A stretch of DNA of 64,000 nt, from assembly GCA_024641335.1 (NCBI GenBank), contig JAHEDG010000005.1, positions 27,779 to 91,778 of the forward strand, read 5' to 3'. Below, in pieces: positions 17,364 to 59,004 of this stretch (its first letter is position 1; the number at the start of each line of letters is the position of its first letter). This stretch comes from Candidatus Zixiibacteriota bacterium (lineage in GTDB: Bacteria; Zixibacteria; MSB-5A5; UBA10806). Under the pieces are notes generated by a model, which worked only from the letters and a program-made list of their open reading frames with translations, searched no databases and was not told where the DNA came from. A program made the position numbers and the translations under genes.

Positions 17364-17391
17364 TTATCGGTATATTTCCGAATCTGTTTAG
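17364..17391 (-). promoter_or_regulatory. sigma-28 promoter for fliD
   Basis: Minus-strand TAAAcagattcggaaatatACCGATAA (TAAA-N15-aCCGATAA). The -10 lies within the palindrome CGATAATATTATCG. Confidence 0.55.
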
Positions 17392-22758: not shown

Positions 22759-22781
22759 ATTATCATTCTCGTCTTTCAGGT

Positions 22782-23369: not shown

Positions 23370-23371
23370 AT

Positions 23372-23911
23372 TTATTTTCTCTTTCTAATCACCCTGGCTG
23401 GTGTTCCCACGGCCACGGCGAAATCAGGAATGTCCTTATTTACCACGCTTCCAGCTCCTATCTGCGCCCCGCGCCCGATATTTACTCCCGGCAAAATAAC
23501 GCTTAAGGCCCCGATATCGGCGCCATCGCCGATAACCACACGACCGTGCCGCAGCGGGGAATGAAGTATCGGTATTTCCGAATCGTCGATATCATGCTGG
23601 GATGTTATTATCGATACCCCCGGCCCTATTCCGACATGCTCCCCTATTTCAATATCGCCGGACGCATATATAAAGCATCGGGGTCCGATCCAGGTCCCGG
23701 AACCTATGACCAATTTACGATCATAATATCCCTTTATTATAGCGTCATGTCCGACATAAACATCATCTCCTATCTCGACATAACGGGCCAGGAATACACG
23801 GACGCCATCCTCGATCACCACTCCCTCGCCCAGCCGCCGAAAATCGCGGTCATCGCCAGGTCCGTGGCTGTTCCATTTCTTGCTTGTTATCTCCTGCGTT
23901 TCCGGATTCAA
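23372..23911 (-). CDS. hexapeptide-repeat (LbH) sugar N-/O-acetyltransferase
   Basis: 179 aa with repeated [LIV]GxxxxI hexapeptides (IGDDVYVGHDAII..IGSGTWIGPRCFI..IGEHVGIGPGVSI), in the PglD/WbbJ class. Confidence 0.75.
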   Translation of the reverse strand: MNPETQEITSKKWNSHGPGDDRDFRRLGEGVVIEDGVRVFLARYVEIGDDVYVGHDAIIKGYYDRKLVIGSGTWIGPRCFIYASGDIEIGEHVGIGPGVSIITSQHDIDDSEIPILHSPLRHGRVVIGDGADIGALSVILPGVNIGRGAQIGAGSVVNKDIPDFAVAVGTPARVIRKRK

Positions 23912-23923
23912 TTCCCCTCCCGA

Positions 23924-26027: not shown

Positions 26028-26035
26028 TGATCCTC

Positions 26036-27727
26036 CTATTTCAACAGATACGCGTCGTTGTCCTCGGCGTATCTGTGGCCATTCATTACAAAATCGTACA
26101 TCCAGAGATATTGACGAATAATCTTCATTGGGTCATGATGAGTCCTGGCCCAACTCCTGCCCTGCTGACCGATTCTGGTGATCTCGCCTTTGTTTTTCAA
26201 AAGATGCTCCAATTTTTCGTAGAGATTGCCCTCGTTAACATAGACAATCGGGTTTTCCGGATGATAGCTGGCGGCAAAATTGGAGATCCCGCAAAGCACC
26301 GCATGCCCGGCGGCCATCGATTCGATAGCCGATAACCCGTAGATACCCACCGATATCTGATCGTAGGTGATATGGCAGCGGCTCTTGATATCCAGACATT
26401 CATCGTTGGATTTACCCTCGATCAATTCCACTTCGACCGGATACTTTTCCTTCAGTTTTTCCACAGTAGAAAGAAACAGATCGGTTTTCTTAAATTGCCG
26501 ATTGGTGGGAGGATGACAAATCCGTACGACATCGGCAGGAGGAGACGCCGGTTTTATGCGCGAGATATCGCACATCATATTTATATGGTAAAAAAGCGGG
26601 GCCTTTTCCAGCATGGTGTGATCCCAGGCGGAAAGGCCGGTTATTTTATTTTCATTATGCCATTTATATATATCAGCCCCGTGAGCCCTGATCTCCGAAC
26701 CGTAATACTGAACCAGAGAGTTATTTGGCTTTAGATACTTGCCCCAGTCGAGATCGTTGAAATTTTTCGGGAAACGTCCGATATGGTAAAAATCAGCCTT
26801 TTCGATTATCTTGACCGCCTCTTCGAAATCATCGCTGTTCCCGTTGGAAAGTATCAGATCCTTATCGTAAGAAAGATAATCGCCATTGAGAATAATGAGC
26901 CTGGCCTTGTGTATGGTGTAACGGTTGAGCATCCTGAATAGCAGCGATAACTGTCCGGCGATATTGAAATCCGCGACCACGGCGATATTTTGGCCGGTCT
27001 TCTTCTCCCATAATTCCTCGGGCACATGTTTTAAAAATATGTCATCGGTTTTGGCCGGTTGTTTCTTGGTGATCGTCAATGTTCCCTTGGGCTGCTTTGT
27101 CTCTGGTACAACCGGGGCAGCCGCCGCTTCGAGTATTAGAGATTTATCGTCGGAAGGCTGGTCAACCGGAACGATACGGTTTGTTTTTTTCGCCGGGACA
27201 TTATTCAGATATTTTTCTATCCACTCCAGAGCCTCGGAGTAGTTTTCGTTTTCCCAGCAGATCTCGAAAAGATTCATCAGCGCTCTCTTATAAAGAGGAT
27301 TCGCGCCAAGGGCTTTGATAAAATGCCCTCTGGCCAGATGCTCTTTGCCCTGAGAGTGGTAAAGCACACCGAGGTCATTGTGAGCCGCGAAATCGCCCGG
27401 ATTCAGCTCTACGGCCTTGAGGAAGTTCTCCACCGACTCGGAAAATCGGGATTGCTTGCTGTGAACCAGGCCCAGGTTGTAATAAGCGTCGCAGTTATCG
27501 GGATTATTGTTAAGAACGGATCCGAAAGCGTTTTCGGCCTTATAATAATCACCGCGTTCGGCATATATGGTACCCTGGGTGTTTAACAACTGAGGGTCGT
27601 TGGGATTATTTTCGAGAAGATAACGAACGGATTCCTCCGCTTTATCCAAATCGCCGTCAGCTAACTCCTGGGCCAGCTGCTCATAAGAAATAACCTGTTT
27701 TTTTTCGGTATCGATTGTTTCCGCCAT
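26036..27727 (-). CDS. TPR-domain protein with a C-terminal GT-B-like glycosyltransferase domain (FlmG-like architecture)
   Basis: N-terminal TPRs (YYNLGLVHSKQSRFSESVENFLKAVELNP) are followed by a C-terminal ~350 aa with a GT4-like E...E region (ESMAAGHAVLCG). The start is reassigned to MAETIDTEK at 27727 (SD GGAAGAGG); the track start is 27817. Confidence 0.5.
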   Translation of the reverse strand: MAETIDTEKKQVISYEQLAQELADGDLDKAEESVRYLLENNPNDPQLLNTQGTIYAERGDYYKAENAFGSVLNNNPDNCDAYYNLGLVHSKQSRFSESVENFLKAVELNPGDFAAHNDLGVLYHSQGKEHLARGHFIKALGANPLYKRALMNLFEICWENENYSEALEWIEKYLNNVPAKKTNRIVPVDQPSDDKSLILEAAAAPVVPETKQPKGTLTITKKQPAKTDDIFLKHVPEELWEKKTGQNIAVVADFNIAGQLSLLFRMLNRYTIHKARLIILNGDYLSYDKDLILSNGNSDDFEEAVKIIEKADFYHIGRFPKNFNDLDWGKYLKPNNSLVQYYGSEIRAHGADIYKWHNENKITGLSAWDHTMLEKAPLFYHINMMCDISRIKPASPPADVVRICHPPTNRQFKKTDLFLSTVEKLKEKYPVEVELIEGKSNDECLDIKSRCHITYDQISVGIYGLSAIESMAAGHAVLCGISNFAASYHPENPIVYVNEGNLYEKLEHLLKNKGEITRIGQQGRSWARTHHDPMKIIRQYLWMYDFVMNGHRYAEDNDAYLLK

Positions 27728-27865
27728 GATCAGGCCTCTTCCAATTTTACTATTCTTGTTTTTTTCGAATGTCCCGTTGATCCGGCAGGCCGGCCATTTC
27801 GTTGAACTTCCTGACAAATGGCCTTTGAAAACGTTAACCCGGCCGGGAATTTTACTAACTGATAC

Positions 27866-28324
27866 TCAAACCGATTTGCTCATCAATCTGCTTTCCAAGT
27901 CCGCGAATATATAGTGCTCCACACCGTATTCGCTGTCCGCGAGTATTAGCTGAGCGGCGTGCTTGTTGCCGGAATTCATGACCACAGGCGCCTGAAGATT
28001 AGCCGACATTTTTTCAGGACGCCCTGCGGGAATAGTAATCAAAACAAAAATACCCGCCTCGGCGATCTTAGTAATACCCAGAACTTTCAGATCCTTGGGA
28101 TTAATGTCCACCACGTAATCAGGCTTAAAGAAAAGAGGTTCCAGCATAAGAAAAGCCAACTCGGAATTTTCCACTGATTGCAGCCATTTGAACGGCTCCT
28201 GCCCTTCCACGGCCACGATGATAAATCTCTTCAGATCCTCAAAACCGAGTATGCCGCGCACCATCAAGATTATATCCGATTTTTTATATTCGATTTCCCC
28301 GAATTTGGCTGTTTCCAGTATCAC
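27866..28324 (-). CDS. fliW: flagellar assembly factor FliW
   Basis: 152 aa; the pattern FGEIEYKKSDIILMVRGILGFEDLKRFIIV...PFKWLQSVE is typical of FliW. Confidence 0.85.
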   Translation of the reverse strand: MILETAKFGEIEYKKSDIILMVRGILGFEDLKRFIIVAVEGQEPFKWLQSVENSELAFLMLEPLFFKPDYVVDINPKDLKVLGITKIAEAGIFVLITIPAGRPEKMSANLQAPVVMNSGNKHAAQLILADSEYGVEHYIFADLESRLMSKSV

Positions 28325-37450: not shown

Positions 37451-37713
37451 TCAAACCCCCAAATTGACAATAATACCCACCGGCACTAAAGCAATCCGTA
37501 TGCCCTTTTGGCTGCTCTTTCAAAAAATAATCAGAGGCTTAAAAAGAGAACTTATTGGCCAGCCTAATCTCTTATAGTTTAACGAGATACGCTTACGCCG
37601 ATCCTACGGACAAACAGCCGGGTCGAGAGCCCGCTTCGGTAAACCGAATTTCCAGCAGGAAAATCTTTCTGGTGAGTATGATTTTTTTTCCGGGTATCCT
37701 AATAATCCAATAG

Positions 37714-37744
37714 AAAATCGACCCCTCGATAGGAGTCGATTTTT
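37714..37744 (-). terminator. bidirectional intrinsic terminator after the last receiver gene
   Basis: AAAAUCGAC-(uccuaucgaggg)-GUCGAUUUU followed by cuauu on the minus strand. A T-run is present on both strands. Confidence 0.5.
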
Positions 37745-37774: not shown

Positions 37775-38197
37775 TCAGGAATTGTAGGATACGGGCTGAT
37801 CAGCGGTAGATTTATTGCGCGCCGAAAGCAGACGCCAATAAGCTCTCTCGATAATCAATGAGACCTCGTGGCTCTTGAACGGTTTGGAGAGATATTCATC
37901 AGCGCCCTTGGTCAAGGCTTCCTTGACAGTATAAGCGTCGCCATACCCGGTCATGACAATTACCGCCATATCCGGCCATTCCGATTTCACTTTTGTCAAA
38001 AGCTCAAAACCGTTCATTCCGGGCATTTTGACATCGGACACCAACAAATCGAATTTCTCTATACGCAGTTTTTCCAGTGCTTCCGTAGCCGAGGAAGCCA
38101 GCGTAACCTTGTATCCTTCGATCTCGAGGATTTTTAAAAGCAAATTCCTCATCATCGCTTCATCGTCCGCGACAAGGATCTTTACATGTTCTTTCAT
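37775..38197 (-). CDS. stand-alone response-regulator receiver protein (CheY-like)
   Basis: 140 aa; ILVADDEAMMR...DLLVSDVKMPGMNG...VIVMTGYGD...SKPF shows all REC catalytic residues. Confidence 0.85.
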   Translation of the reverse strand: MKEHVKILVADDEAMMRNLLLKILEIEGYKVTLASSATEALEKLRIEKFDLLVSDVKMPGMNGFELLTKVKSEWPDMAVIVMTGYGDAYTVKEALTKGADEYLSKPFKSHEVSLIIERAYWRLLSARNKSTADQPVSYNS

Positions 38198-38289
38198 GCC
38201 CCTTTACTCCTTTATTAATATATCCGGGTCACGATGCATAGCAAGTTAGGTATCAGCTATTCTTAATATCGAATGTTTTCCCAGGATGT

Positions 38290-38673
38290 TTAATTATATT
38301 TTTGTGTTTTACTTGACAACAAATCCGAGATATTCTTCTTTATTTCGTTTAATTTGAAAGGTTTTCTCAATAACTTGTAATTGGTCAATACGTCCCAGTT
38401 TATGGAACTGCCCGATAAATCCACTCCGGCGGTCAAAATAACCGGAGTCTCGATAGACTGGTTTCTCATATTTATCAACAGCTCGTCCCCTCTCATTCTG
38501 GGTAATCCGATATCCGAAATAATCAAATCGAAACAGTCGGATTTCATCATCTTCCAGGCGTCCTCGCCGCTGGCGGCCAGATTTATATCATAGCCGAACC
38601 GCGTGACTATCTCGCCCACCACGTCCCTTACTTCCTTGACATCTTCGACAATCAATACTCTGCCCCTGGACAT
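38290..38673 (-). CDS. stand-alone response-regulator receiver protein
   Basis: 127 aa; VLIVEDVKEVRD...DLIISDIGLPRMRG...LRKPF. Confidence 0.85.
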   Translation of the reverse strand: MSRGRVLIVEDVKEVRDVVGEIVTRFGYDINLAASGEDAWKMMKSDCFDLIISDIGLPRMRGDELLINMRNQSIETPVILTAGVDLSGSSINWDVLTNYKLLRKPFKLNEIKKNISDLLSSKTQKYN

Positions 38674-38680
38674 AAAACGC

Positions 38681-39049
38681 CTATCCCTTCTTCACATCGG
38701 TTAAAAGCCTGACTATTTTTTCCGAATCCTTGATTATTCCTCCCAGGGCAGTCTCGATATTATGGATCAGATCCTGATCGACTGTGCTCTCTTGAGGGTC
38801 GGAAAATATATTTTTCGGCTTTTTCTCGGTTTTGGCGGCGCTTAATATCTGGTTCATATGCTTGACCGCCTGAGTTGCCTGGTTTACCAGTTGCGATAAC
38901 TTCTGATTGATTTCCACATTCAGGTTCTTTTTGTGAGACAGCTTGGCCGCCGCCACAGCTATATTCAATGCCAACAGCTGAATATCGCCGGAGACCGATT
39001 CCATATACTCCAGAAGCTCCTGACTGGTATATTCGACTTTATTTTTCAA
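38681..39049 (-). CDS. hypothetical helical protein with an MCP signalling-domain-like segment
   Basis: 122 aa. GDIQLLALNIAVAAAKL resembles the conserved MCP core NLLALNAAIEAARAGE. It overlaps the next gene by 4 nt. Confidence 0.3.
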   Translation of the reverse strand: MKNKVEYTSQELLEYMESVSGDIQLLALNIAVAAAKLSHKKNLNVEINQKLSQLVNQATQAVKHMNQILSAAKTEKKPKNIFSDPQESTVDQDLIHNIETALGGIIKDSEKIVRLLTDVKKG

Positions 39050-39417
39050 AATGTAAGATACTCCCTTACTTTACTTTTCAATTCGGTCAGGTCTGACGAT
39101 TTTACCAGGTAAGCATCGGCCAGCCACGACGTGAAATTGGCTTTATATGTGGAATACGCTGAATTTAATATGATCGGCACCCGGCCCGCCCTGCTCCTGA
39201 TTACCTCGAGCACTTCCAGGCCGTCCATATCCTTCAATTTGATATCCAAAATAATCAGATCGACACTTGAATCATGATTCAATCGATCGAGCGCTTCCTC
39301 CCCCGATCCAACCGAAAATGTTTTATAACCTTCAATTCCGAATTCGCTTTCATATAAGCTGCGGATTCCGGCTTCATCGTCAACAATTAGAATGTTTTTC
39401 ACTATTCCTCCTTGCAT
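39046..39417 (-). CDS. stand-alone response-regulator receiver protein
   Basis: 123 aa; ILIVDDEAGIR...DLIILDIKLKDMDG...NSAYSTYK. Confidence 0.85.
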   Translation of the reverse strand: MQGGIVKNILIVDDEAGIRSLYESEFGIEGYKTFSVGSGEEALDRLNHDSSVDLIILDIKLKDMDGLEVLEVIRSRAGRVPIILNSAYSTYKANFTSWLADAYLVKSSDLTELKSKVREYLTF

Positions 39418-41150
39418 AATGGCAGCTCGATTGTCAACCAGCCATGCAAATTATCCGACGAGCCAATTCCGATATCTCCGCCGTAATGCTGAAGTATCTC
39501 CAGAGCTACGGCCATCTCCTGCGATCTTAAATCTCCGTGTCCATCTCTAAGCACTCTATAGAACATTTCGGCAAATTCCCGGTAATTATCACCTCCGCCG
39601 ATAAATATTATAGCCGAGTCGAGACGTTTCTTTATCTCCATGGCGACTTTTTCGATACCGCCGACAATTCGCGCCGATTCACGCAAAATCACCATCATGG
39701 CTTCGTAAAACAATCCCTGATCCACAAATATCCTCGCGCCCAGAATCTCGATATCTTCCGTAACAGAGGGAAATCCGTCCGTTTCCGAGTTCACCATCAT
39801 ACCCAGAGCTTCTTTTACCAAATCGGTAAGAACAAATTTGTCTTCTTTCTTTTCGCTAAGTGATACGATACTGGAAAAACGGTCGAGTGTCTGCTCGATT
39901 CGCGAGGATTGTTTGGAAATTATTTCCAGCGCCGCGTAAGCAGGATCGTCCGAACTCGATTTACGCAACTGAGCGTTGGCATAACCACCGATTATGGTCA
40001 GGGGATTACGAACCTGGTGAGCTACATCGAGCGCCATCTTGGAAATACTCGATAATTTTTCTGCCCTGATCAGGTTTTCACGTGATCTGATAATCTGCCT
40101 GTTGGCTTCTTTGAGACTGAAGATTTGCCTTCGTAGTTTTCCGTATAGCCGGGAATTCTCAATAGCGTCTGAAGCGTACCTGGCGAAAATCTCCAGAAAT
40201 TTGACGTCCGTAGGCGAAATAGGTTTTCTGGTGACCATATTATCAGCGACTATCACTCCCAAACGTGATTCCATCGAGATAAACGGAACTACTGCCAATT
40301 CATCAACACCGAATTTCCTTCGAAGTTCAGGATCATTCCCCTCCAGCATCATATCCGGTCCGACTATAATAGATTTCTTTTCGAGGATCGCCCTCGACAG
40401 AAAATTGCTCCCCCCCGCTATGGGGATCTGAAGCGATACCACCAGCTTATTAACATAACCGTCATGAATTTTGGGATCGGCTTTATAGAGCCGCAATACT
40501 TCCTCTAACGGCAACGGTCTGGCCGAAAGGCTTTGCCAGATAGCTCCGGCGTCTTCACTGGATGATGGCCCCGTAGCCAGACAGCCATGTAATAATGTCT
40601 CGGAATCATCGGCCAAGAATATAAATCCCCTGTTGAATCCCAGGCCTGATCCGGAGGTCACCGCCAGCAGGACTATTCTCAGTATATCGGTCAGATTCTT
40701 CGTTTCTGAAAATGCCCTGACAGCCTGGTTAATTATATCCAGATCCCTTATTTTTGCCTGCAGCTTTTCAGAAATCTCCTTTTCGACGCACGTTTCGGAT
40801 ATAACGCAATTTATCGAATCATCCCCCTGCTCTCCTGATGGGAAACAAAGCAGATTGAACGCGCAAAAGAGGCCGCTGTTGGAACGCCGCTGGAATTGAA
40901 ATGACGACGATTCTCCGGCGAAAGATCTGTCCAGAGCCGCCCTGAGACCCGGGTCTTGCAGGGGCAGAAGTTCAGCCGAATTAATATCATCCGACCGCCT
41001 GGGAGCCCAGTCGGGTATCAAGCCATACCAGCTGAGCTTTTTAATCCTATGATCTTTTGTCAGGGTAAAATACGCTGCCAGCCGATCTATCGATTCGGAT
41101 GTTTCTTCCTGTTCAGTCGATGAAATCATAATACTACGGCCATCTGTCAA
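39402..41150 (-). CDS. GAF-domain sensor histidine kinase
   Basis: 582 aa. A central GAF domain is followed by a DHp carrying the phospho-His (DVAHQVRNPLTIIGGYANAQL) and a divergent HATPase-like C-terminus. Confidence 0.8.
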   Translation of the reverse strand: MTDGRSIMISSTEQEETSESIDRLAAYFTLTKDHRIKKLSWYGLIPDWAPRRSDDINSAELLPLQDPGLRAALDRSFAGESSSFQFQRRSNSGLFCAFNLLCFPSGEQGDDSINCVISETCVEKEISEKLQAKIRDLDIINQAVRAFSETKNLTDILRIVLLAVTSGSGLGFNRGFIFLADDSETLLHGCLATGPSSSEDAGAIWQSLSARPLPLEEVLRLYKADPKIHDGYVNKLVVSLQIPIAGGSNFLSRAILEKKSIIVGPDMMLEGNDPELRRKFGVDELAVVPFISMESRLGVIVADNMVTRKPISPTDVKFLEIFARYASDAIENSRLYGKLRRQIFSLKEANRQIIRSRENLIRAEKLSSISKMALDVAHQVRNPLTIIGGYANAQLRKSSSDDPAYAALEIISKQSSRIEQTLDRFSSIVSLSEKKEDKFVLTDLVKEALGMMVNSETDGFPSVTEDIEILGARIFVDQGLFYEAMMVILRESARIVGGIEKVAMEIKKRLDSAIIFIGGGDNYREFAEMFYRVLRDGHGDLRSQEMAVALEILQHYGGDIGIGSSDNLHGWLTIELPLCKEE

Positions 41151-41177
41151 TTCCCGATATGCGATACGCGCCGACCG

Positions 41178-42029
41178 TTACTCGCCAACTTTCAGTGTAA
41201 ATCTTCTTTCGGATCTGGCGGACGGTGAAACAAATTGCTGAGCGATCGACAAAATATTCGAGGCTTCTTTATCAATGGCTTTAAGACGTCGCAATACCGA
41301 GCTATTGGAATTCTTCATGGTCATGAGTAGAAACTGAGCGTTGCCGGCGATAATCGCCAGAGGATTGCTGATCTGCTGATTGAGCGTATCGGCCAGGTTA
41401 CCGCCTGCCTTGATCTGTTCCATTTTGCTCATCTCAATATGGGTATTTTTCAATTTTTCATTCAAGCTGTGAATTTCATCCTTGAATTCGGATTCGTATT
41501 TGGTGTTGGCTATCCTTTCAGCCAGAAGCTCCATCAAAGTGGCCACGATAGCCACCAGTTCGACATCACGTTCGGTAAACGAGTCGGGTTCGTCATGGGC
41601 TAAGTTAATCACCCCGGTTATTTCACCCCCGAACAGCATCGGAACGGAAAGAAACGATTTTGTATGAGAACCGGCCCTGGATTTCCTCAAATTATTCAGC
41701 ACAATAGGCCGTTTTTTTTGAGCCACCCAGGCAGAGATTCCGAAACCCATATCGAATTCGACAAAATCAATAAGATCCACCGTCCGCCCGATAGTGCAAA
41801 TCTCTTCGAGCTTGCCGCTTATTTTGGAATTCAAAAAAAGCGAAGCGGAGCGGAAATCCACCATTTTCCCAAGGTGCTTTAAGATCCCTTCAAATGAGTC
41901 ATCCGTTGCAGGCGAGCTTTGTATCTCGCCCGATATTTCACAAAGCAATTTCAGTTCGTTTTCGAAGCCTGTCATTCCGGATCTTTCTAAAGTTCGAGGC
42001 ACTATTCCCTCCGTAGTTTCAACCGCCAT
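41178..42029 (-). CDS. GAF–DHp protein lacking both the phospho-acceptor His and the ATPase domain (pseudo-histidine kinase)
   Basis: 283 aa. A GAF domain is followed by a DHp paralogous to the neighbouring kinase, but with NQQISNPLAIIAGNAQFLL (Gln in place of His). The protein ends after the DHp second helix. Confidence 0.6.
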   Translation of the reverse strand: MAVETTEGIVPRTLERSGMTGFENELKLLCEISGEIQSSPATDDSFEGILKHLGKMVDFRSASLFLNSKISGKLEEICTIGRTVDLIDFVEFDMGFGISAWVAQKKRPIVLNNLRKSRAGSHTKSFLSVPMLFGGEITGVINLAHDEPDSFTERDVELVAIVATLMELLAERIANTKYESEFKDEIHSLNEKLKNTHIEMSKMEQIKAGGNLADTLNQQISNPLAIIAGNAQFLLMTMKNSNSSVLRRLKAIDKEASNILSIAQQFVSPSARSERRFTLKVGE

Positions 42030-42042
42030 ATTTTCAAAGTAC

Positions 42043-42516
42043 TTATTTGCAGTCTTCTATTTTTAGAACTTCCTTCAACGCCTTGATCATCGAGCTCATC
42101 CTGAACGGTTTTTTGAAAACTTCCGTGACACTGAAAGGTTTTATGGAATCCAATCTTCTCGATCCTTTGGCGATTGTGGCAAAAACAGGCAAACCGGGCA
42201 TCATCGTTCTTATTATCCTGATAACCTCCGGCCCGAAGCACTCCGACTCGGACAGGTTGATTATCGCGGCGTCATGCCGCCCTGTAAGAGCTTCTGTTAT
42301 GGCCATTTTGCCGTCTTCCACCGTAACCACCTCGAATTTCGATTTGTTCTTTAACGAGTATTTTATCAATCTTCGTACGAATTCGTTATCGTCTCCGACC
42401 AGAATCCTCTTTCCGGAAAACGCCGGCAATTCGTCGGGATTGTCATGTTCGTAAGCAATTTTTATTTCATGTTGGCCATCAGATACCCGGCCAGTTTCTC
42501 CGCTAATTTCCTGCAT
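42043..42516 (-). CDS. receiver-domain protein with Asn at the phospho-acceptor position
   Basis: 157 aa; RILVGDDNEF...HDAAIINLSESECFG...FATIA...KKPF. The DD, T and K positions are conserved, but the acceptor Asp aligns to Asn. Confidence 0.7.
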   Translation of the reverse strand: MQEISGETGRVSDGQHEIKIAYEHDNPDELPAFSGKRILVGDDNEFVRRLIKYSLKNKSKFEVVTVEDGKMAITEALTGRHDAAIINLSESECFGPEVIRIIRTMMPGLPVFATIAKGSRRLDSIKPFSVTEVFKKPFRMSSMIKALKEVLKIEDCK

Positions 42517-43019
42517 GTTTTCTCTTCGGTCATCAGTCGTTCGGTTTGACTTGGGTACAAATCGGCGTCGTATTTATCGTTGAAGATATACTGGGCGCGC
42601 ACGCCTCCGGATGCATTCATCTTAAACAGCTTTGCCGGCTGACCATCGGCCGCCGACGGGATTTCCACATACGATTCCAGCTGATAATTTCTGGAATACC
42701 GGTTCAATATATATGGAATGGAAAAGGCCCTTTTAGTTTCCCACAAATTACGAGTAATTACGATATTTACGATATATTCCCCGGCCAACGGTTTATCGTC
42801 CGGGCCATTCAGGAGTCTGAACCTGCCGGGAAAACTGGCCAGACGCAGCTCTCTTTCCAAAGCCTCGGCCAAACGGTTCGAGGGATATTCGGCGACTTCG
42901 TTCAGGGATGTTATGGTTAATGCCAGATTGTCGGTTGGAATTTTCGAGCCCCAGGCAGAAATTCCGGGAATTCCTAAAAGCAATAACGATACAACTACTA
43001 CCCGGGACACTCTACTCAT
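42462..43019 (-). CDS. hypothetical secreted/periplasmic protein
   Basis: 185 aa with an N-terminal signal peptide (VVVVSLLLLGIPGISAWG). It overlaps the downstream receiver ORF by 55 nt. Confidence 0.4.
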   Translation of the reverse strand: MSRVSRVVVVSLLLLGIPGISAWGSKIPTDNLALTITSLNEVAEYPSNRLAEALERELRLASFPGRFRLLNGPDDKPLAGEYIVNIVITRNLWETKRAFSIPYILNRYSRNYQLESYVEIPSAADGQPAKLFKMNASGGVRAQYIFNDKYDADLYPSQTERLMTEEKTCRKLAEKLAGYLMANMK

Positions 43020-43761
43020 GATCCCCGCCGCCTTGTTTCCTGGATTCCACCTGCTGTTTGTAAATATACTGTACTACCAACTTTTGAAGGTTCTCGTCGA
43101 ATGTGCCGCTTCCTTCAGGTAGAAACTCGCCCAGCCTCTCGAGATTATATTTCGAGCTGTTAGCCTCATTTATGAATTCAGCCCCGACCAAAGACTTGCC
43201 GTCATCCAGAGATTCCACCCTCTTCACCACCGAAAGGATATTTTTCAGGGTATGATTGTCTCGCAGCCTTAAATTGACTACCAGGAGACTGCCCTCTTTA
43301 TGCTTTTCCCCGGACTCGAACAGGATTCCTCCGGCGGAAATATTAAGAAGATCACCTTTAGCCTCGGCGCTCAAAGCCCCGGTCATGTTTTGAGGATCAT
43401 CCAATATCCTGAAACTGATTTTACCCGAAATATCCAGCCTGACAAATTGCCGCCTCTGAACACGTTCCGTCTCGCTTATCTTTTCCAGTTCGGCAGAACT
43501 GCCCTCGCCAATAAACAAATCCTTTATGCTGGCCTTAAAAGTGTAGGCGGCGTCATGCTTATTATAGCTAACGTCCACTACGTCTCCTTTTGAAAGGTTA
43601 GTATTTCCACTCTGCTTTATGGGCATTTCGATGACGTATGAGCGCCTTTTTATATTTTCGATCCTGCTGAGATATTCCCCGGCCTGACCGCCACGGGTCA
43701 CCCGGATGGCTATTTTATCCCAGAGGGAGATCGTATCTTTTTTAGTAGTATATTTCTTCAT
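43012..43761 (-). CDS. YcgR-like PilZ-domain protein (candidate c-di-GMP flagellar brake)
   Basis: 249 aa. An N-terminal YcgR-N-like domain is followed by PilZ motifs RRQFVRL (RxxxR) and NISAGGILF (D/NxSxGG). Confidence 0.7.
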   Translation of the reverse strand: MKKYTTKKDTISLWDKIAIRVTRGGQAGEYLSRIENIKRRSYVIEMPIKQSGNTNLSKGDVVDVSYNKHDAAYTFKASIKDLFIGEGSSAELEKISETERVQRRQFVRLDISGKISFRILDDPQNMTGALSAEAKGDLLNISAGGILFESGEKHKEGSLLVVNLRLRDNHTLKNILSVVKRVESLDDGKSLVGAEFINEANSSKYNLERLGEFLPEGSGTFDENLQKLVVQYIYKQQVESRKQGGGDHE

Positions 43762-44939
43762 TATGCATTGACTTTATCAGATTTCTTAATCAGGCGGTTT
43801 TGTTCCAGCGACATCTCCAGGATCTTCTTGGCGTTGGCATAAAGTGACTTGTCGCCTTTGCTCCTGGTCATCATATCCTGCGATTGCCGAGTAGTAATTT
43901 TAAAATACTCATTGGCCTTTTCGAAGTCTCCGACTCTACGGGCGAGTTCGGCTATCATATAAGACGCCTGAAGCTGCTGCAGCCCGGGTTTGATCTCTCG
44001 GCTGTTCTGGTAGGCTTTCAGATAGTTTTCTAAAGCTAAAACCAAAGCCTCAGATTCGACGACCGGGATATCTGTCCATATTTCTCTGGCCTTGTACAAA
44101 AACTCCCTGAAACTCGGGAATTCGACGAAACCGTCCTGCGCCACCATAGCGCTCTTTTGAGCCAATACTTCCTTTTTCACATTATTGAATTGAGCCTGGA
44201 GATTTAAAATATCTTTTTGCATCGAACTCCAGACATTGTGCACGCTTTCTATCGCGGGAATCAGCTTGGTCGAGATCCCGGCCGTGGAGTTAATATTAAC
44301 CGTCGGCTTGAAATCGGCCGAAATCATCTGGTGAAGCGACGGCAGGTTAGAGCCGAAATCCTCGACGTTCTTCTTTAGCCTGTCGATCTCCAACTGAATC
44401 TTACTCAACATCAGCTGCGCCGGATCGGAGGATTCTTCGCCGACATTCATGTCGCGATAGATCCAGGCAATTCTCAGATAGAATCGGGCGATATCAAGGG
44501 CGGTCGGACGGTCCAAAAGCAACTCGTCATAAATGGCTAAAAGCAGTTTGATTACGGCCGATTCGCTCGGAAATAATTCGTTGCTGATATGCGAGCCCAG
44601 GAATTTAATTATACCGTTATCTATCGCGTTGGCTTCCTGATGTTTGGCTTTCTGGCCTGGAAGTTTATAAGATTTGAAATTACTGTTATTCTGCCATTCT
44701 TTATACGTTGAATTCAATTCCCGCGAATAATAGCAGGAATTGCAGGTAGCTGTAAAATAAAGAAGAGGGTTATATTTTTGATAAACGGGATTGGCCCAGG
44801 CTCTGCCGGTTGGGGCGAAATCAGTGTCCCGACCCGATTCGGTATAGGCTCCCTGCTTGATTACCTCGAATACATTAAGATTCCCGCATATCGGACATTC
44901 GAGCTTGATGTTGAAAAAGGGTCTATTATCCGCGGACAT
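43761..44939 (-). CDS. hypothetical protein with an N-terminal CxxC...CxxC zinc ribbon (DUF2225-like)
   Basis: 392 aa; LECPICGNLNVFEV...TATCNSCYY at the N-terminus, with the remainder helical. Confidence 0.4.
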   Translation of the reverse strand: MSADNRPFFNIKLECPICGNLNVFEVIKQGAYTESGRDTDFAPTGRAWANPVYQKYNPLLYFTATCNSCYYSRELNSTYKEWQNNSNFKSYKLPGQKAKHQEANAIDNGIIKFLGSHISNELFPSESAVIKLLLAIYDELLLDRPTALDIARFYLRIAWIYRDMNVGEESSDPAQLMLSKIQLEIDRLKKNVEDFGSNLPSLHQMISADFKPTVNINSTAGISTKLIPAIESVHNVWSSMQKDILNLQAQFNNVKKEVLAQKSAMVAQDGFVEFPSFREFLYKAREIWTDIPVVESEALVLALENYLKAYQNSREIKPGLQQLQASYMIAELARRVGDFEKANEYFKITTRQSQDMMTRSKGDKSLYANAKKILEMSLEQNRLIKKSDKVNA

Positions 44940-45005
44940 TTTTGGCCTTTCATTTCATGGTTTACAATAATTCTATCGGCAATACCGATTTTTCCTGAAG
45001 GCCGT

Positions 45006-45404
45006 TTATAAGCTTTCCGCGACTTCCGCTATTTCCGCGCTCCGTCTGGCCGTAGCCAATAGAATTCCCATCTCCGATTGTGAATAGCCGTACTCTCTGC
45101 CAACCTCCTCCGGCGATTCTCCCATCTGAAGCATTTGCAAAGCTCCGGCGATCCGGTTTTCGACCGTGGCCTCCGGTTGGGGCTGTTCCTTTTCGGTCTG
45201 GGGAAGATCCGTCGCGATTTCTCGTTCCTCCAGCATTGTTAGCCTGCTTAGAAGATCGGAATAATCCCGTTCGGGCTGCTGAACGCGTTGATTATCTTGT
45301 TGACTACTTTTTGCCTTCGAGTCACGCATATAAGCCCGCAGCAAAATTGCCATCACTGCCAGATTCGCCAATGACACTATCGATGTTACTATCGTGGAAA
45401 ACAT
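45006..45404 (-). CDS. hypothetical membrane-anchored protein with a C-terminal HTH-like segment
   Basis: 132 aa with an N-terminal TM helix. The C-terminal GESPEEVGREYGYSQSEMGILLATARR resembles a Fis/sigma-region-4 type HTH. Confidence 0.35.
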   Translation of the reverse strand: MFSTIVTSIVSLANLAVMAILLRAYMRDSKAKSSQQDNQRVQQPERDYSDLLSRLTMLEEREIATDLPQTEKEQPQPEATVENRIAGALQMLQMGESPEEVGREYGYSQSEMGILLATARRSAEIAEVAESL

Positions 45405-45417
45405 TGCTCCTCCTGTA

Positions 45418-45747
45418 TCAGGCCAGAAAATCTACGCTCTTGCCCTTAATATTATCGGGCGGGGACGTTTGCTGGCCGTTAGTCTTGTCCTTTTCATCAT
45501 CTTCTTCTAATTCGTCGTTTTCATCCTCTGCCGCGGTTTCTTCTTCCTCTTCGTCCTTGTGCAGAATGATTTCGTCTTTTTCGTTTTTCCGTTTTTTCTT
45601 TTTCTTCTCTTCGGCGATTTTCCTGTCTAGCTCGGCCACAAATTGCTTTTTTGTGGCCTCCCCGGTGCTGCCTTTCTTGGTATGCCGAACCTCTCTTATC
45701 GGTTCGCTTCGGGCCAGGTCGTTGTTCATTTCCACCCGTTCAATCAT
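45418..45747 (-). CDS. hypothetical highly charged (Lys/Glu/Asp-rich) protein
   Basis: 109 aa with low-complexity KKKKKRKNEKDE / EEEEETAAEDENDELEEDDEKD tracts. Confidence 0.3.
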   Translation of the reverse strand: MIERVEMNNDLARSEPIREVRHTKKGSTGEATKKQFVAELDRKIAEEKKKKKRKNEKDEIILHKDEEEEETAAEDENDELEEDDEKDKTNGQQTSPPDNIKGKSVDFLA

Positions 45748-45777
45748 GGGCCGCTCCAGTTAAAGCGTGATCTTTGT

Positions 45778-46536
45778 CTAAATTGCGAACTTGTCTCTAA
45801 TGGATATCCTCAGACGGGAGACAGCGCGCGTATGAATCTGCGATACCCGGGATTCGGATATCAGCATAATATCACCTATTTCCTTGAGAGTCAGTTCCTC
45901 ATAATAATAGAGAGAGACGACCAAACGTTCCTGCTCGGTCAGTCCGCTGATGGCCTGCATCAGGTACGCCTTCAGCTCTGTTTTTTCCATATCCGCTAAT
46001 ACATCGACCGTAGCCGTATTCTCTACTGTTTCGATTCGCGGCACCTGACGGTTATCGTCTTCGCGGCAAATCATCTCGTCCAGCGAAAGAAGCGATGAAA
46101 AACTCAAGTCTTTCTGGGCGCTGAAAAGCTCCTGAATCGAGATATCCAGAGTGGTGGCGATTTCATGGTTCGACGGACCGCGGCCGAGCTCGTTCTCTAA
46201 CTTGCTTACCGCCCGGTCGATATTTCTTGCCTTGGCCCTGGTGGAACGCGGCACCCAGTCTAAAGCCCGAAGCTCATCAAGGATTGCTCCCCGGATACGC
46301 GGAACGGCGAAAGTTTCGAATTTCACGCCGCGGCCGGGATCGAAATTATTGAAAGCCTCGATCAAACCTATTACCCCTGTGTTAACCAGATCGTTCAAAT
46401 CGACCGATTTGGGAAAAGTAGCCGCCATGCGTCCGGCCACATTTTTAACCAGGGGGAGATAATTGTTGAGGAGCTTATCCCGAACCTCGGAATCATTTGT
46501 TTCTTTGTAGTGTTCCCAGATTGCTGTAATTGCCAT
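45778..46536 (-). CDS. fliA: flagellar sigma factor sigma-28
   Basis: 252 aa with sigma-70 regions 2, 3 and 4 (LVKNVAGRMAATFP...GVIGLIEAFNNFDPGRGVKFETFAVPRIRGAI). Confidence 0.9.
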   Translation of the reverse strand: MAITAIWEHYKETNDSEVRDKLLNNYLPLVKNVAGRMAATFPKSVDLNDLVNTGVIGLIEAFNNFDPGRGVKFETFAVPRIRGAILDELRALDWVPRSTRAKARNIDRAVSKLENELGRGPSNHEIATTLDISIQELFSAQKDLSFSSLLSLDEMICREDDNRQVPRIETVENTATVDVLADMEKTELKAYLMQAISGLTEQERLVVSLYYYEELTLKEIGDIMLISESRVSQIHTRAVSRLRISIRDKFAI

Positions 46537-46575: not shown

Positions 46576-47361
46576 TTATCGTCCTGCGGAGCCGGAAATT
46601 GGAAGTAGTTCTATGCCGGTTTCAGGATCTGTTTCACTATGCAACACCCCGGACCTGTTCAAACTGATATTTTTCACGAATGAGATGAATTCGGCGGCGT
46701 TATTATCGATAACGAACTCTTCATATTCCCGCTCTGTTCGACGATACGTGTAACCGCCGTTGCCGACCTTCATCCCGAGAAATTGCCCCGTCAGAATATC
46801 AAACCTCTCCTTGAATGAAAGAGCGTGCTCCGGAGAATTGACAAACCCGAATACGGCTTTGACCCGTTCGGCCAGACCCTCCAAAGCCAGCGATTTCAAC
46901 AGACAGTATGACGATGCCACCGCGGAAGCTTCCGGTTTAATCAGAAGGAATATTTCCTCGCACAAATCGGCGGCGGCCATGGCCAGCGGATGATTCCCCG
47001 CCGGTGGATCGATAACCATGACCCCATACTTCCGTCCAAGACCGTGAATACTCCTGACCAGATTTTCAAGATCCCTGCGTCCGGGGTTGAGAACATCCGG
47101 AGGATTACAGGTTAAAAGATCGAATCCCATACCGGTATTTGTCACCAGTTCCTCGAGTCCGTTGTCGGCCTGGAAAATCTGATGGTAATCCGGAATGGCG
47201 CCACCGACTATATTCAATCCGCCGGTCCCGAAACAGAAATCGATCAATAACGTTTTCTGTCCGTAACGGGCCATGCTGATGGCGCTTCCCAAAGCGGAAG
47301 CGGTTCTGCCTGAACCCCCGGCGCCAGAAAGGAATACGATACCTTTAGCCGTTTCGGTCAT
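46576..47361 (-). CDS. flhG: MinD/ParA-family flagellar number regulator FlhG (YlxH-like) with a degenerate Walker A motif
   Basis: 261 aa with a MinD-like fold, immediately downstream of flhF. The P-loop reads IVFLSGAGGSGRTAS instead of SGKGGVGKTT. Confidence 0.7.
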   Translation of the reverse strand: MTETAKGIVFLSGAGGSGRTASALGSAISMARYGQKTLLIDFCFGTGGLNIVGGAIPDYHQIFQADNGLEELVTNTGMGFDLLTCNPPDVLNPGRRDLENLVRSIHGLGRKYGVMVIDPPAGNHPLAMAAADLCEEIFLLIKPEASAVASSYCLLKSLALEGLAERVKAVFGFVNSPEHALSFKERFDILTGQFLGMKVGNGGYTYRRTEREYEEFVIDNNAAEFISFVKNISLNRSGVLHSETDPETGIELLPISGSAGR

Positions 47362-56027: not shown

Positions 56028-56582
56028 TTATTGCAGAACGTAGTCCACGAAATAAATCCGGTAAACTGAATCCGGTTTGATCGCGGTATTCACGTTTGTC
56101 AGGATCTCCTCCCTGAGCTTTTCTTTCCCTTCGATTGAACTTAATTGATCCATTGTCTTAGATGTCAATAAGGCGATCAGCACATCACGGATTACGGGGG
56201 TCACACTTTCCAGGCCGGCTTCATGACCTTTCTCTTTCGATACCTTATACTCCAGCCCTATCGAGGTCGATAGATATCTGGTGCCGTTGGTACCGGCGGG
56301 ATTGACTACGATATCGTCAATCATATGAATCTTGCTGTCTCCCCGCTCCGGGGCCGCGTTTTCTTCGACCGGCATTCCCGACGCCAACTGCAGCCGCGGC
56401 GTCAGGTATGACCTGACGAAAAAGAACGCTCCAACTGCCATAACTATCTGCATTGCCGCCATAATCAGGAGCATACTTAGTAAACCTCCCGATTTCTTGG
56501 GACCATCCGCTTTCGCGCCGATTTCCTCGTCGAGAGGCTCGCCGATATCGTCCATTTGTGATGCCGTAGCGGTATCAGGCAT
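56028..56582 (-). CDS. fliL: flagellar basal-body-associated protein FliL
   Basis: 184 aa with a single TM helix and YLSTSIGLEYKV...VIRDVLIALLTSKTMDQLSS. Confidence 0.8.
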   Translation of the reverse strand: MPDTATASQMDDIGEPLDEEIGAKADGPKKSGGLLSMLLIMAAMQIVMAVGAFFFVRSYLTPRLQLASGMPVEENAAPERGDSKIHMIDDIVVNPAGTNGTRYLSTSIGLEYKVSKEKGHEAGLESVTPVIRDVLIALLTSKTMDQLSSIEGKEKLREEILTNVNTAIKPDSVYRIYFVDYVLQ

Positions 56583-56665
56583 ATCTCACCTGTCTTTCTC
56601 CGAACCGATTAGTTCTTCGGTTTTCAATCAAGTTTAGTTTTTTATTTTTCATCATTTTATCCGGG

Positions 56666-56690
56666 CCGGAGGGAATCGAATTCCCCCCGG
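56666..56690 (-). other. GC-rich stem-loop between flgE and fliL with no U-tract
   Basis: CCGGGGGGAAU-ucg-AUUCCCUCCGG, ~11 bp, located 10 nt after the flgE stop. Confidence 0.35.
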
Positions 56691-56700
56691 CCTGTCAGGT

Positions 56701-59004
56701 CTAACTCTTAAGGTTAACCAGTTCGTTCAGCATAGCGTCCGAGGTTGTGATAACCCGGGCGTTCGCCTGAAATCCGCGCTGGGATACGATCATATTGGTG
56801 AATTCCTGAGCTAAGTCCACATTGGATATTTCGAGAGCGCCCGACGAAATTGTCGATGATGTCGTCTCCCCCGGAATATTCATAATGGCCGCGCCGGTGT
56901 TGGCCGACTCCTGGTAAAGGTTATTGCCGGCCTTCAAAAGGCCGCCGTTGTTGTTGAATTCGGCGACATATATCTGCGCCAATACCCTCGATACGCCGTT
57001 GGTGAATATACCGGTAATCGTCCCGCGGGGATCGATGCTGATATTGGAAAGAATACCCATCCCGTAACCGTCCTGACTGCGAGCGGCAGCCGTGGAGCTG
57101 GATGCGAAACCGGTCAACCCGTCAAATCCCCCGGAAGTCCCGGCAAAGAGCTGGATACTCATATCCAGAGCCCCGTTGTCCGGATCGATATTCAATGAGG
57201 AAACTCCTCCATTATAATCGAAAGAACTTAACGAACCATCAGGATTGAAATTGGCCGTGCCAGTGCCGCCCGAACGGACTATTTCGCCTTGCGCAAGCGA
57301 AGCTTCCCAAAACCATTGGTTCGGCAGCCATGATTTGGTAAAGGTAATGGTCAGATTGTGTTTGCCGCCCTGCGAATCATAGGCCGCTATCGACGTGGAA
57401 TGCTGGGTTTCTTCGGTATCGATTACCAGCATCGATGAGGTCAGCGGACCTGTGCCGTCGGGATCTCCGATCAATCCGCCGTTACCGGCTGATATGGTGA
57501 CACCGCCACCGCCCAGTTCGCTGATACCCGTGACAATGCCCGTATTGGGATTGAAAACCAGGTCGAGAATCTCCGGGGCTAGCGACGGACGATTGGTAGG
57601 CGTAAATACATCGGTAGCTATCAGCGTAGACGCCGAACCGTTATTGACATTGAATAGGCCCGATCCGAAAACCTGGCCGGCTACGTCCGATGTGCCGGTA
57701 TCCTCGAAGACTACGTTATAGACCGAGGCGCTGCCGGCGTAATTCCTCTTGATATGAATCTCGCCGCTATCCAGCGACGCGGTGAGACCTTGCGCGTTGG
57801 AATTGATGGCTGATATTAACTCGTCTATTGTCGATGTCAGCGACAGCTGGGGCAGCGTTATCCAGGCTCCGCCATCGACTCTCATTCTGAATCCGTTGAC
57901 ATCGGTTACTCCCAGAGACGAAAGCTGATTTCCTCCGGAAAGAGATAATGTAGTGTTGATAGACGGAGGAGGAACACCGTCTCCGCTGATCAACCCGTCA
58001 TCAGTCCATAAAAGCGGACCGGGCGCGGCATAAGCCATTTCGCTCAAACGGCCCCCAAGAACACCTTCATACGTTCCGCCCGCCGTTCTGCGATAGACTC
58101 TTATCGAGGTGACATCGGGATCGGCATAATTGACCGTCAAATCGATCGAACCGCTAGCCGGTACTCCAACCACGTTGATCTCCTGACCAATCGATTCGCC
58201 CAACGAGTTGATCGCTATTACCGTATAGACATAGTCACCGGCCGGAAGAGTACCTGTCCCCGCGCCGCCAACCGCCGTACCTATATCGGCGACTACAACG
58301 TCATCCAGAACCATAGCATGAGACCCGGAAAGCTCCGAGAAACGGGCGTTATCACCCAGGATTGTTATATCATGCTGCCCGCCGGAACCGTTGGTGGCTC
58401 TACCCGATACCGATGTGATATTAGATGTTCCGGCCGAAACGAGCGATGCTGTCGAATCAGTAGCCGCGGCGTTTAGGTTCATTCCCAATTGGATCTCTGT
58501 TGTCATTCTGGCCGGGTCCTGCTGGCCGAATGGAAGAGTTACATTCCCAATTGCCGCGTTAGCCGGGATGGTTCCGTCGACATCAGCCATTTTACCCTGC
58601 AGAACAAGTCCAGTGGATGGGCTGACCATATTGGAATCGGCGTCAAAACCGAACGCTCCGGCTCTGGTGTAATATTCCTGCTGACCGTCGGAAACAACAA
58701 AGAACGCCGAACCCTGAATCGCCAGATCAGTCACCTGGCCGGTGGTCTCCAGACCTCCCTGCAAAAATAGGTTGTCTACGGTGGCCACACTCATACCCAG
58801 TCCCAATTGAAGCGGGTTGGTTCCGCCCGACGTGCTTGACGGACGTCCCGCGCCGCGCAATGTCTGCACCAACGCTTCCTGAAATGTGGTACGCCCGGAT
58901 TTATATCCGATTGTGTTGACGTTCGCGATATTATCGCCGACTACATTCATCCTGACCTGGTGATTCTTCAGGCCGCTGACGCCGGCGAAAAGTGATGCCA
59001 TCAT
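56701..59004 (-). CDS. flgE: flagellar hook protein FlgE (767 aa)
   Basis: The N-terminus MMASLFAGVSGLKNHQVRMNVVGDNIANVNTIGYK and the C-terminus ...NVDLAQEFTNMIVSQRGFQANARVITTSDAML are FlgE terminal domains. A large central insert is present. Confidence 0.9.
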   Translation of the reverse strand: MMASLFAGVSGLKNHQVRMNVVGDNIANVNTIGYKSGRTTFQEALVQTLRGAGRPSSTSGGTNPLQLGLGMSVATVDNLFLQGGLETTGQVTDLAIQGSAFFVVSDGQQEYYTRAGAFGFDADSNMVSPSTGLVLQGKMADVDGTIPANAAIGNVTLPFGQQDPARMTTEIQLGMNLNAAATDSTASLVSAGTSNITSVSGRATNGSGGQHDITILGDNARFSELSGSHAMVLDDVVVADIGTAVGGAGTGTLPAGDYVYTVIAINSLGESIGQEINVVGVPASGSIDLTVNYADPDVTSIRVYRRTAGGTYEGVLGGRLSEMAYAAPGPLLWTDDGLISGDGVPPPSINTTLSLSGGNQLSSLGVTDVNGFRMRVDGGAWITLPQLSLTSTIDELISAINSNAQGLTASLDSGEIHIKRNYAGSASVYNVVFEDTGTSDVAGQVFGSGLFNVNNGSASTLIATDVFTPTNRPSLAPEILDLVFNPNTGIVTGISELGGGGVTISAGNGGLIGDPDGTGPLTSSMLVIDTEETQHSTSIAAYDSQGGKHNLTITFTKSWLPNQWFWEASLAQGEIVRSGGTGTANFNPDGSLSSFDYNGGVSSLNIDPDNGALDMSIQLFAGTSGGFDGLTGFASSSTAAARSQDGYGMGILSNISIDPRGTITGIFTNGVSRVLAQIYVAEFNNNGGLLKAGNNLYQESANTGAAIMNIPGETTSSTISSGALEISNVDLAQEFTNMIVSQRGFQANARVITTSDAMLNELVNLKS

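Follow-up and report, generated by a model that had tools for sequence, protein, structure and literature searches.

A gene block conserved behind fliA in Zixibacteria pairs a PilZ protein with stand-alone receivers, kinase-like proteins, and a chemoreceptor tip

What might a flagellar operon do with signaling genes that include three receivers and the tip of a chemoreceptor, when no encoded protein looks, to judge by its sequence, able to use ATP for making phosphohistidine? The question is raised by a 64-kb stretch of DNA from a Zixibacterium (contig JAHEDG010000005.1, here called the window; coordinates refer to it unless another locus is named), in which a minus-strand run of 12 tightly packed open reading frames (ORFs) extends over about 8 kb, from position 45747 down to 37775, 3' of flhF-flhG-fliA. 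We tentatively read this block, at a probability of roughly 45%, as a flagellum-control module. Such a module would take in cyclic di-GMP (c-di-GMP) through a PilZ protein and one or more intracellular ligands through PAS/GAF domains, receive phosphoryl groups from an outside source, and act through free receivers, most plausibly on the flagellar switch. We infer its biochemical activities and its target from what we observe directly, namely, gene content, motifs, homologies, synteny, and operon-like packing. The block and its boundaries comprise the following features, in the direction of transcription (lengths in amino acids [aa]).

45778..46536, minus strand: fliA (sigma-28), with Sigma70_r2, r3, and r4 matches; upstream boundary of the block, 39 nucleotides (nt) past flhG
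45418..45747, minus strand: 109-aa Lys/Glu-rich small protein, probably disordered, without a significant Pfam or NCBIfam match
45006..45404, minus strand: 132-aa single-pass membrane protein with a DUF2802/DUF6115-like C-terminal helix-turn-helix-like motif, called from a hydrophobic N terminus and a weak profile match
43761..44939, minus strand: 392-aa DUF2225 protein (Pfam), with an N-terminal four-Cys zinc ribbon and a helical body resembling tetratricopeptide repeats (TPR)
43012..43761, minus strand: 249-aa PilZNR+PilZ protein of the YcgR/MotI type, a candidate c-di-GMP-dependent flagellar brake or clutch
42462..43019, minus strand: 185-aa protein, predicted to be exported from its N-terminal hydrophobic, signal-peptide-like leader
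42043..42516, minus strand: 157-aa pseudo-receiver with a receiver (REC) fold and Asn for the acceptor Asp (Response_reg 35 bits, weak)
41178..42029, minus strand: 283-aa protein with GAF (E 1e-12) and HisKA-like (E 8e-4, subthreshold) dimerization and histidine phosphotransfer (DHp) domains and no ATPase domain
39402..41150, minus strand: 582-aa ThkA-like protein with PAS-like, GAF, and DHp domains and a degenerate catalytic ATPase (CA) domain (GAF and HisKA matches)
39046..39417, minus strand: RECa, 123-aa single-domain receiver, TrrA-like (Response_reg 76 bits)
38681..39049, minus strand: mini-MCP, 122 aa, a stand-alone homologue of the hairpin tip of chemoreceptors (methyl-accepting chemotaxis proteins [MCPs]), called from profile matches
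38290..38673, minus strand: RECb, 127-aa single-domain receiver (Response_reg 66 bits)
37775..38197, minus strand: RECc, 140-aa single-domain receiver (Response_reg 107 bits)
37709..37743, minus strand: intrinsic-terminator-like hairpin and U-tract before flgF, the likely 3' end of the transcription unit

Whether this gene set recurs next to fliA in related genomes was a question raised by an earlier note on this DNA. A scan of a genome collection, which gave no match with the DUF2225 protein as a single sequence and needed an alignment as query, found DUF2225 relatives in 170 species-level genomes. The window's own 582-aa and DUF2225 proteins, looked up by identical sequence, had no entry. 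Eighty loci, overwhelmingly labeled Zixibacteria, were fetched; the ORFs of these approximately 80 loci were called and classed by iterated hidden Markov models (HMMs) seeded from the window proteins. Named homologues of the DUF2225 protein belong to Zixibacteria or candidate division GN15. The gene set does recur: fliA lies upstream of the DUF2225 gene in 64 of the 64 loci with enough flanking sequence. All of the 51 loci that span the block in full have the exported protein, and 48 have the mini-MCP, RECb, and RECc together. The same block order is found in two complete chromosomes with independent gene calls. The genes for the 582-aa protein and RECa are jointly present in 35 loci and jointly absent in the rest; in the sole exception, the kinase-like gene is split into two ORFs. 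We conclude that the block is a phylum-level syntenic unit and not a chance neighborhood, and its conserved position beside fliA argues for a function tied to the flagellum. The earlier proposal of an uncharacterized sensory pathway tied to the flagellum appears reasonable, given this conservation and the lack of a description of the block in the literature searched. That literature also held nothing relevant on chemotaxis or motility signaling in Zixibacteria, and the founding RBG-1 Zixibacterial genome was described as non-flagellated.

The genes in the window run, in the direction of transcription, from an MgtE_N-like gene through fliK, flgD, flgE, fliL, fliM, fliN, fliO, fliP, fliQ, fliR, flhB, flhA, flhF, flhG, and fliA to the 12-ORF block, and flgF, flgG, flgA, flgH, flgI, flgJ, flgN, flgK, and flgL lie 3' of it. 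From fliA downstream, the successive junctions are gaps of 30, 13, and 66 nt, overlaps of 1, 8, and 55 nt, gaps of 13 and 27 nt, overlaps of 16 and 4 nt, and gaps of 7 and 92 nt; 324 nt then separate the last receiver gene from flgF. The ORF spacing bears out the tight packing behind fliA that the earlier note had described. The ORFs that it listed are real, and Pfam profile searches confirm the listed domains; its list left out the 109-aa charged protein at 45418-45747. The terminator-like hairpin has a 13-bp stem (minimum free energy, -20.8 kcal/mol; centroid, -17.3; z = -3.5 versus shuffles) and is followed by UUUUCUAUU. Within the block, generic scans found promoter-like and terminator-like sites at chance level, with no excess over shuffled sequence, and consensus scans for sigma-28 and sigma-54 found no site; an Rfam scan found a tRNA alone. 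The packing would fit a single long transcript reaching from the export genes, by way of fliA, to the hairpin at 37709-37743. The 92-nt gap before the RECc gene (38198-38289, minus strand) holds a weak sigma-70-like match (TTGCTA-16-TATATT, 9/12), and this last receiver gene might have its own promoter as well. The G+C content across 38000-46000 is 0.44 to 0.47, versus 0.49 to 0.52 in the flanking flagellar genes. Recent transfer is an unlikely cause, as the block is conserved phylum-wide.

How does this arrangement relate to chemotaxis? The earlier note held that the block replaces a Firmicute-type che block, and this view is not established. The envelope of the host is diderm, because flgH and flgI are present in the window, and L and P rings are predicted; Firmicutes are thus the wrong reference for a Zixibacterium. 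The Bacillus subtilis fla/che operon has the same upstream order (fliK, flgD, flgE, fliL, fliM, fliN, fliOPQR, flhB, flhA, flhF, flhG). In Pseudomonas and Vibrio, the signaling genes come after fliA, as they do here, and the gammaproteobacterial flhF-flhG-fliA-cheYZAB...cheW-DUF2802 cluster has a DUF2802-like membrane protein in common with the Zixibacterial block. In contrast to the B. subtilis and gammaproteobacterial clusters, the Zixibacterial block, in a host with L and P rings, lacks cheA, cheB, cheR, cheC, cheD, and cheZ, as well as cheW in the window; its receptor is reduced to the 122-aa tip, and no protein in the kinase role appears competent to bind ATP. The statement that cheA, cheW, and full-length MCPs are missing stands for the 64-kb window, where we found no ORF with the CheA set of Hpt, dimerization, HATPase, and CheW-like domains and no CheW. 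A search of the neighborhood of the module, out to about 10 kb, in the approximately 80 Zixibacterial loci (1.39 Mb with the window counted in) likewise turned up neither CheA nor a full-length MCP. The earlier note named FliM and FliN as candidate receiver targets; the FliM N terminus reads MAQVLSQDEIDALL, and the LSQDEIDALL motif noted earlier is indeed present there.

The 122-aa protein, previously called MCP-mimic-like, is better described as truly homologous to the hairpin tip of chemoreceptors. The window protein itself scores 16.7 bits against Pfam MCPsignal (E 0.0067), under the cut-off of 34.6. A profile of 45 mini-MCP orthologues matches the cytoplasmic tip of the Thermotoga MCP TM1143 (2ch7) at E 8.7e-9, in register with LLALNAAIEAA, and also matches Tsr, Aer, PcaY, and TM14; the mini-MCP HMM picks up, in unrelated che loci, MCPs of full length (median, 656 aa) at about 1e-12. 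When 5.8 billion proteins were searched, 212 homologues were obtained, many with precomputed PF00015 matches; the 120 listed are 114 to 138 aa in length, and all named ones but one are Zixibacterial. In an AlphaFold2 model (predicted local distance difference test score [pLDDT], 68), residues 9-39 form a helix, 40-44 a turn, and 45-74 a second helix, followed by a disordered linker and a helix at 92-121; the modeled turn coincides with the position of the receptor U-turn. The protein has diverged at the canonical turn residues, and it corresponds to the tip region only, with neither methylation helices nor the rest of a full-length MCP.

One subclade, recognizable by a mini-MCP subtype of 130 aa, has a bona fide cheW (PF01584, E 1e-17 to 1e-38) immediately behind the mini-MCP gene. 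It was found in three genome loci (L067, L078, and L083) and confirmed on two further contigs (L084 and L086) with independent gene calls, in each case between the mini-MCP and RECb genes.

L067, 13832-14839: cheW, encoding a 336-aa protein with an N-terminal extension of about 200 aa
L078, 17211-17690: cheW
L083, 16679-17239: cheW
L084, 7327-7806: cheW
L086, 10613-11239: cheW

When metagenomes were scanned with the Zixibacterial CheW as seed, the matches were generic che operons of unknown taxa and, in addition, one copy (L088) 99% identical to a query CheW. The co-location with cheW hints, more strongly than any other observation, that the mini-MCP has kept the behavior of a receptor tip, and it suggests that the block derives from a chemosensory system or communicates with one.

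The two GAF proteins resemble histidine kinases and seem to lack the means to act as such. In the 582-aa protein, HisKA is matched at E 5.7e-8 and the H-box HE.RNPL is present in 40 of 40 orthologues. Its best solved relative is ThkA of Thermotoga maritima (PDB 3a0r), whose H-box context, AHE(I/L)RNP(I/L)T.IGGF, it shares. The family profile matches ThkA (3a0r_A) at E 2e-42 over DHp and CA, with a weak PAS match; because this match spans the DHp and ATPase domains, the C-terminal domain is homologous to HATPase_c. There is no Pfam HATPase_c match to the 582-aa protein, and in all 40 orthologues the positions aligned with the N (Mg-ATP-binding Asn), G1, F, and G2 boxes of ThkA and ZraS hold variable residues that are neither Asn nor Gly. 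ThkA thus has these boxes in canonical form, whereas the Zixibacterial family has none and adds a GAF domain. The label of GAF histidine kinase given in the earlier note is therefore not upheld, as the missing boxes and the missing HATPase_c match mean that, by sequence, the protein is not a competent autokinase.

The 283-aa protein, with its GAF and HisKA-like domains, a Gln in place of the phospho-acceptor His in the window's lineage, and no ATPase domain, agrees with its earlier description as a pseudo-kinase. Its orthologues keep the His in 44 of 56 cases (NHEINNPL) and the Asn of NPL in 53 of 56. The 157-aa protein was likewise rightly called a pseudo-receiver, and its gene is confined to the window's wider clade. 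An E-x-x-N motif beside the His is retained in the DHp proteins; in HisKA proteins such a motif is compatible with phosphatase activity. The nearest functional analogy is offered by ChpT of Caulobacter, a kinase-shaped phosphotransferase that does not bind ATP, and Spo0B of Bacillus, both of which work between single-domain receivers (PMC3433190). Each has a DHp hairpin with a phospho-accepting His and a Bergerat-like domain that does not bind ATP, as the 582-aa protein appears to have (PMC3433190). PAS and GAF sensor domains set the Zixibacterial proteins apart from ChpT and Spo0B, with which they have no specific sequence relationship.

The three stand-alone receivers were compared with their orthologues and with solved structures. 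The best solved relative of RECa is TrrA (3a0r_B, E 1e-23), which is ThkA's own partner; its D-D-D-S/T-K residues are intact in 41 of 41 orthologues, and its gene overlaps the 3' end of the 582-aa gene by 16 nt. RECa is the presumed partner of the 582-aa protein. RECb keeps the acceptor D in 59 of 59 and the K in 58 of 59 orthologues, with the Thr column shifted by one position in the alignment and no aromatic residue at K-3. RECc keeps D-D-D-T-K in at least 55 of 58 orthologues and is the closest of the three to CheY/NtrC receivers (E. coli CheY, E 8.5e-12); its top solved matches are the Spo0F, FixJ, FleR, and NtrC receivers, and Spo0F is among the top solved relatives of RECa as well. None of the three reaches an NCBIfam equivalog cut-off, and NCBIfam gives no equivalog-level name for the block. 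The catalytic residues of the receivers are kept across the phylum; therefore, phosphorylation evidently matters.

The c-di-GMP side of the block is represented by the 249-aa protein, which matches PF12945 (E 5e-10, 39.8 bits) and PF07238 (E 1.7e-9, 38.4 bits), both above cut-off. The PilZ c-di-GMP motifs, RRxxxR and [D/N]xSxxG, are kept in 76 to 78 of 78 orthologues. The PilZN(R)+PilZ architecture and the RxxxR and [D/N]xSxxG motifs are shared with YcgR of E. coli and MotI/DgrA/YpfA of B. subtilis, and YcgR/MotI-type PilZNR-PilZ proteins are motor brakes or clutches. The Zixibacterial gene differs from these in lying within the flagellar operon, beside the DUF2225 gene. Most Zixibacterial lineages have three tandem PilZ paralogues, of which the second and third often lack the motifs, whereas the window's clade has one.

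The remaining proteins of the block have less familiar relatives. The DUF2225 protein scores 74.6 bits against PF09986 (cut-off, 21), with the model covering residues 9-166, and its zinc-ribbon residues C15, C18, C66, and C69 are invariant in 21 sequences. Inactivation of a DUF2225 gene in Leptospira biflexa, LEPBIa0550, caused a motility defect and left morphology unchanged (bioRxiv 10.1101/2025.07.04.663154). LEPBIa0550 shares its Pfam family with the Zixibacterial protein, and the latter differs in its 392-aa length and its long TPR-like extension. The 132-aa membrane protein of the window matches DUF2802 at E 0.04 (14.5 bits, below the Pfam cut-off of 33.5); among 44 orthologues, 12 match DUF2802 at E <= 0.1 (best, 4.5e-5) and 3 match DUF6115. 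This likeness to DUF2802 appears to be a distant resemblance only. The 109-aa protein follows fliA in 62 of 64 loci and has an invariant D58 and a C-terminal H-x-D-x-K-A motif; we considered it as a FlgM-like anti-sigma factor and rejected this assignment, as its low-complexity charged sequence has no such similarity. The 185-aa exported protein has no Pfam or NCBIfam match, and a homologue search with this one sequence as query gave a 99%-identical copy and nothing else.

From these elements, we propose that the block is the 3' part of a long flagellar export/fliA operon and would exert phylum-specific, post-translational control of the flagellum through two arms. In the first, the PilZ protein would most likely slow or disengage the motor as c-di-GMP rises, with the DUF2225, DUF2802-like membrane, small charged, and exported proteins as putative accessory flagellar factors. 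The second would be an atypical His-Asp relay, in which the two cytoplasmic GAF sensor proteins with kinase-type DHp helices would act, most likely and by analogy with ChpT and Spo0B, as ligand-gated phosphotransferases or phosphatases. Their substrates would be the three receivers with intact phospho-acceptor pockets, and the mini-MCP, CheW-partnered in a sister subclade, would be a scaffold or coupler. Because neither DHp protein seems able to bind ATP, the phosphoryl groups would have to be supplied by acetyl phosphate or by a kinase whose gene lies elsewhere. Since the receivers have no output domains, they would exert their effect by binding to a target, and the switch is the most plausible one, as FliM keeps the CheY-docking N terminus.

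The alternative that survives best, which we hold to be rather unlikely, would make the block an accessory branch of a canonical chemotaxis pathway located elsewhere in the genome. CheA would then feed the receivers, which would serve as additional CheY-like proteins or as sinks for phosphate; the mini-MCP, along with CheW in lineages that have it, would titrate chemoreceptor arrays or become part of them; and the DHp proteins would have the role of phosphatases like CheZ and CheX. Nothing would have been replaced in this case. This alternative shares most of the mechanism proposed above and differs only in the phospho-donor. It draws strength from the homology of the mini-MCP to the receptor tip that binds CheA and CheW, from the genuine cheW in the module of one subclade, from the lack of a competent kinase in the module itself, and from the CheY-docking motif of FliM. 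However, neither CheA nor a full-length MCP came out of the searches of the window and of the surroundings of the other loci, the best matches of the receivers do not mark them as CheY orthologues, and the mini-MCP shows divergence at residues of the canonical turn.

Less likely still is control of flagellar assembly, number, placement, or late gene expression, not rotation, with the receivers, the DUF2225 protein, and the membrane proteins acting on FlhF/FlhG, FapA, sigma-28, or the export gate. The block does lie directly 3' of flhF-flhG-fliA in 64 of 64 loci, and the TPR-like body of the DUF2225 protein is a protein-binding fold. Two neighbors bear on this alternative, flhG and the gene for FapA (Flagellar Assembly Protein A, DUF342; PF20250+PF03961; about 475 aa), which comes after the last receiver in most lineages.

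46576-47361, minus strand: flhG, with a degenerate Walker A (GAGGSGRT versus GKGGVGKS, both lysines lost)
L062, 16164-17576: FapA
L086, 12232-13674: FapA

The FlhG Walker A is lost (G[AS]GGSGRT or GSPLYGKS) only in the window's immediate clade (L001, L004-L006, and L009-L012), whereas all other Zixibacteria keep SGKGGVGKS. The 283-aa protein has lost its His in the same clade, which also has a single PilZ gene versus three and mostly has FapA not adjoining the module; no FapA was seen in the window, where, as in its clade, flgF takes its place. The degenerate Walker A, the lost His, and the displaced FapA are compatible with co-evolution. Against assembly control stand the PilZNR-PilZ protein, whose YcgR/MotI type is generally that of motor brakes and clutches, the MCP-tip and CheW ancestry, which points to behavioral signaling, and the lack of any detected DNA-binding or anti-sigma domain in the block.

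The 582-aa protein is very unlikely to be an ordinary active sensor kinase that joins RECa, RECb, and RECc in a conventional branched two-component system lying here by chance, as the Mg-ATP-binding Asn, G1, F, and G2 boxes are absent in 40/40 with no HATPase_c match, all receivers are without output domains, and the phylum-wide position argues against chance adjacency, despite the invariant H-box, the ThkA homology over DHp and CA, the TrrA-like receiver overlapping its 3' end, and a GG-x-x-G segment that is conserved where the CA-like domain ends.

Several observations weigh against the flagellum-control module that we favor. The 582-aa protein and RECa are missing from about a third of lineages and are therefore not essential to the core. 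No receiver is specifically CheY-like; the best solved relatives are TrrA and the Spo0F, NtrC, and FixJ receivers. The His of the 283-aa protein is replaced by Q, K, or E exactly in the window's immediate clade and by N in four scattered other loci, and the pseudo-receiver has N in the window where several of its 7 orthologues have D. With both residues lost in the window's clade, some of the relay components may be in decay or may work through binding alone. That the ATP-binding boxes are gone is read from sequence, and an unusual nucleotide site in the 582-aa protein is possible. A Foldseek search with the mini-MCP model was uninformative, as expected of a coiled-coil hairpin, and gave no functional match; a fold search with the DUF2225 protein gave no specific one. 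The evidence that would link the block to the flagellar genes in one transcript is their spacing. Finally, the position next to flhF, flhG, and FapA would suit control of assembly no less than control of rotation.

The rest of the flagellar region has features of its own. The unusually large axial proteins, all encoded on the minus strand, are FlgE (767 aa, 56701-59004), flagellin (744 aa, 17516-19750), and FliD (770 aa, 14955-17267). Between the flagellin gene and fliW (27866-28324), genes for TPR/glycosyltransferase, aminotransferase, epimerase, and acetyltransferase proteins occupy 19948-27817 and look like a flagellin glycosylation island. The sole minus-strand match to a sigma-28-type consensus in the window (TAAA-N16-CCGATA, 17365-17390) lies between the flagellin gene and fliD, upstream of fliD. 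At the distal end of the region (12592-13978, minus strand), an HDOD-domain protein (203 bits) is encoded directly downstream of a 156-aa ORF (13508-13978), a candidate FlgM by its C-terminal sequence alone, with no Pfam match. There is no motA or motB between flgE and fliL (56582-56701); fliE, fliF, fliG, fliH, fliI, fliJ, flgB, and flgC are not in the window; and no long ORF is present on the operon strand in the 1.4 kb (62606-64000) that precede the first gene of the operon.

What is new here is the phylum-wide combination of genes, the stand-alone receptor-tip family, and the seemingly ATP-blind ThkA-like family in a flagellar operon; every domain is of a known kind, and we found no description of these three features in the literature searched. 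To our knowledge, all chemosensory classes are built around CheA. It is improbable, though the most far-reaching version of these ideas, that a CheA-independent pathway operates in Zixibacteria, in which a soluble receptor tip, with or without CheW, couples to GAF-regulated, ATPase-less DHp proteins, and these move phosphoryl groups between, or strip them from, stand-alone receivers that dock on the switch. If true, this would mean that the MCP/CheW scaffold has been rewired from CheA to HisKA-type partners and that c-di-GMP and His-Asp inputs are integrated in one flagellar operon. The block would represent either a new link between sensing and the motor or a clear instance in which a Che system was dismantled and reused. 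The DUF2225, DUF2802-like, and putatively ATP-blind HisKA proteins gain a defined, conserved genetic context, and because the proteins are small and soluble, their biochemistry is feasible even though the organisms are uncultured.

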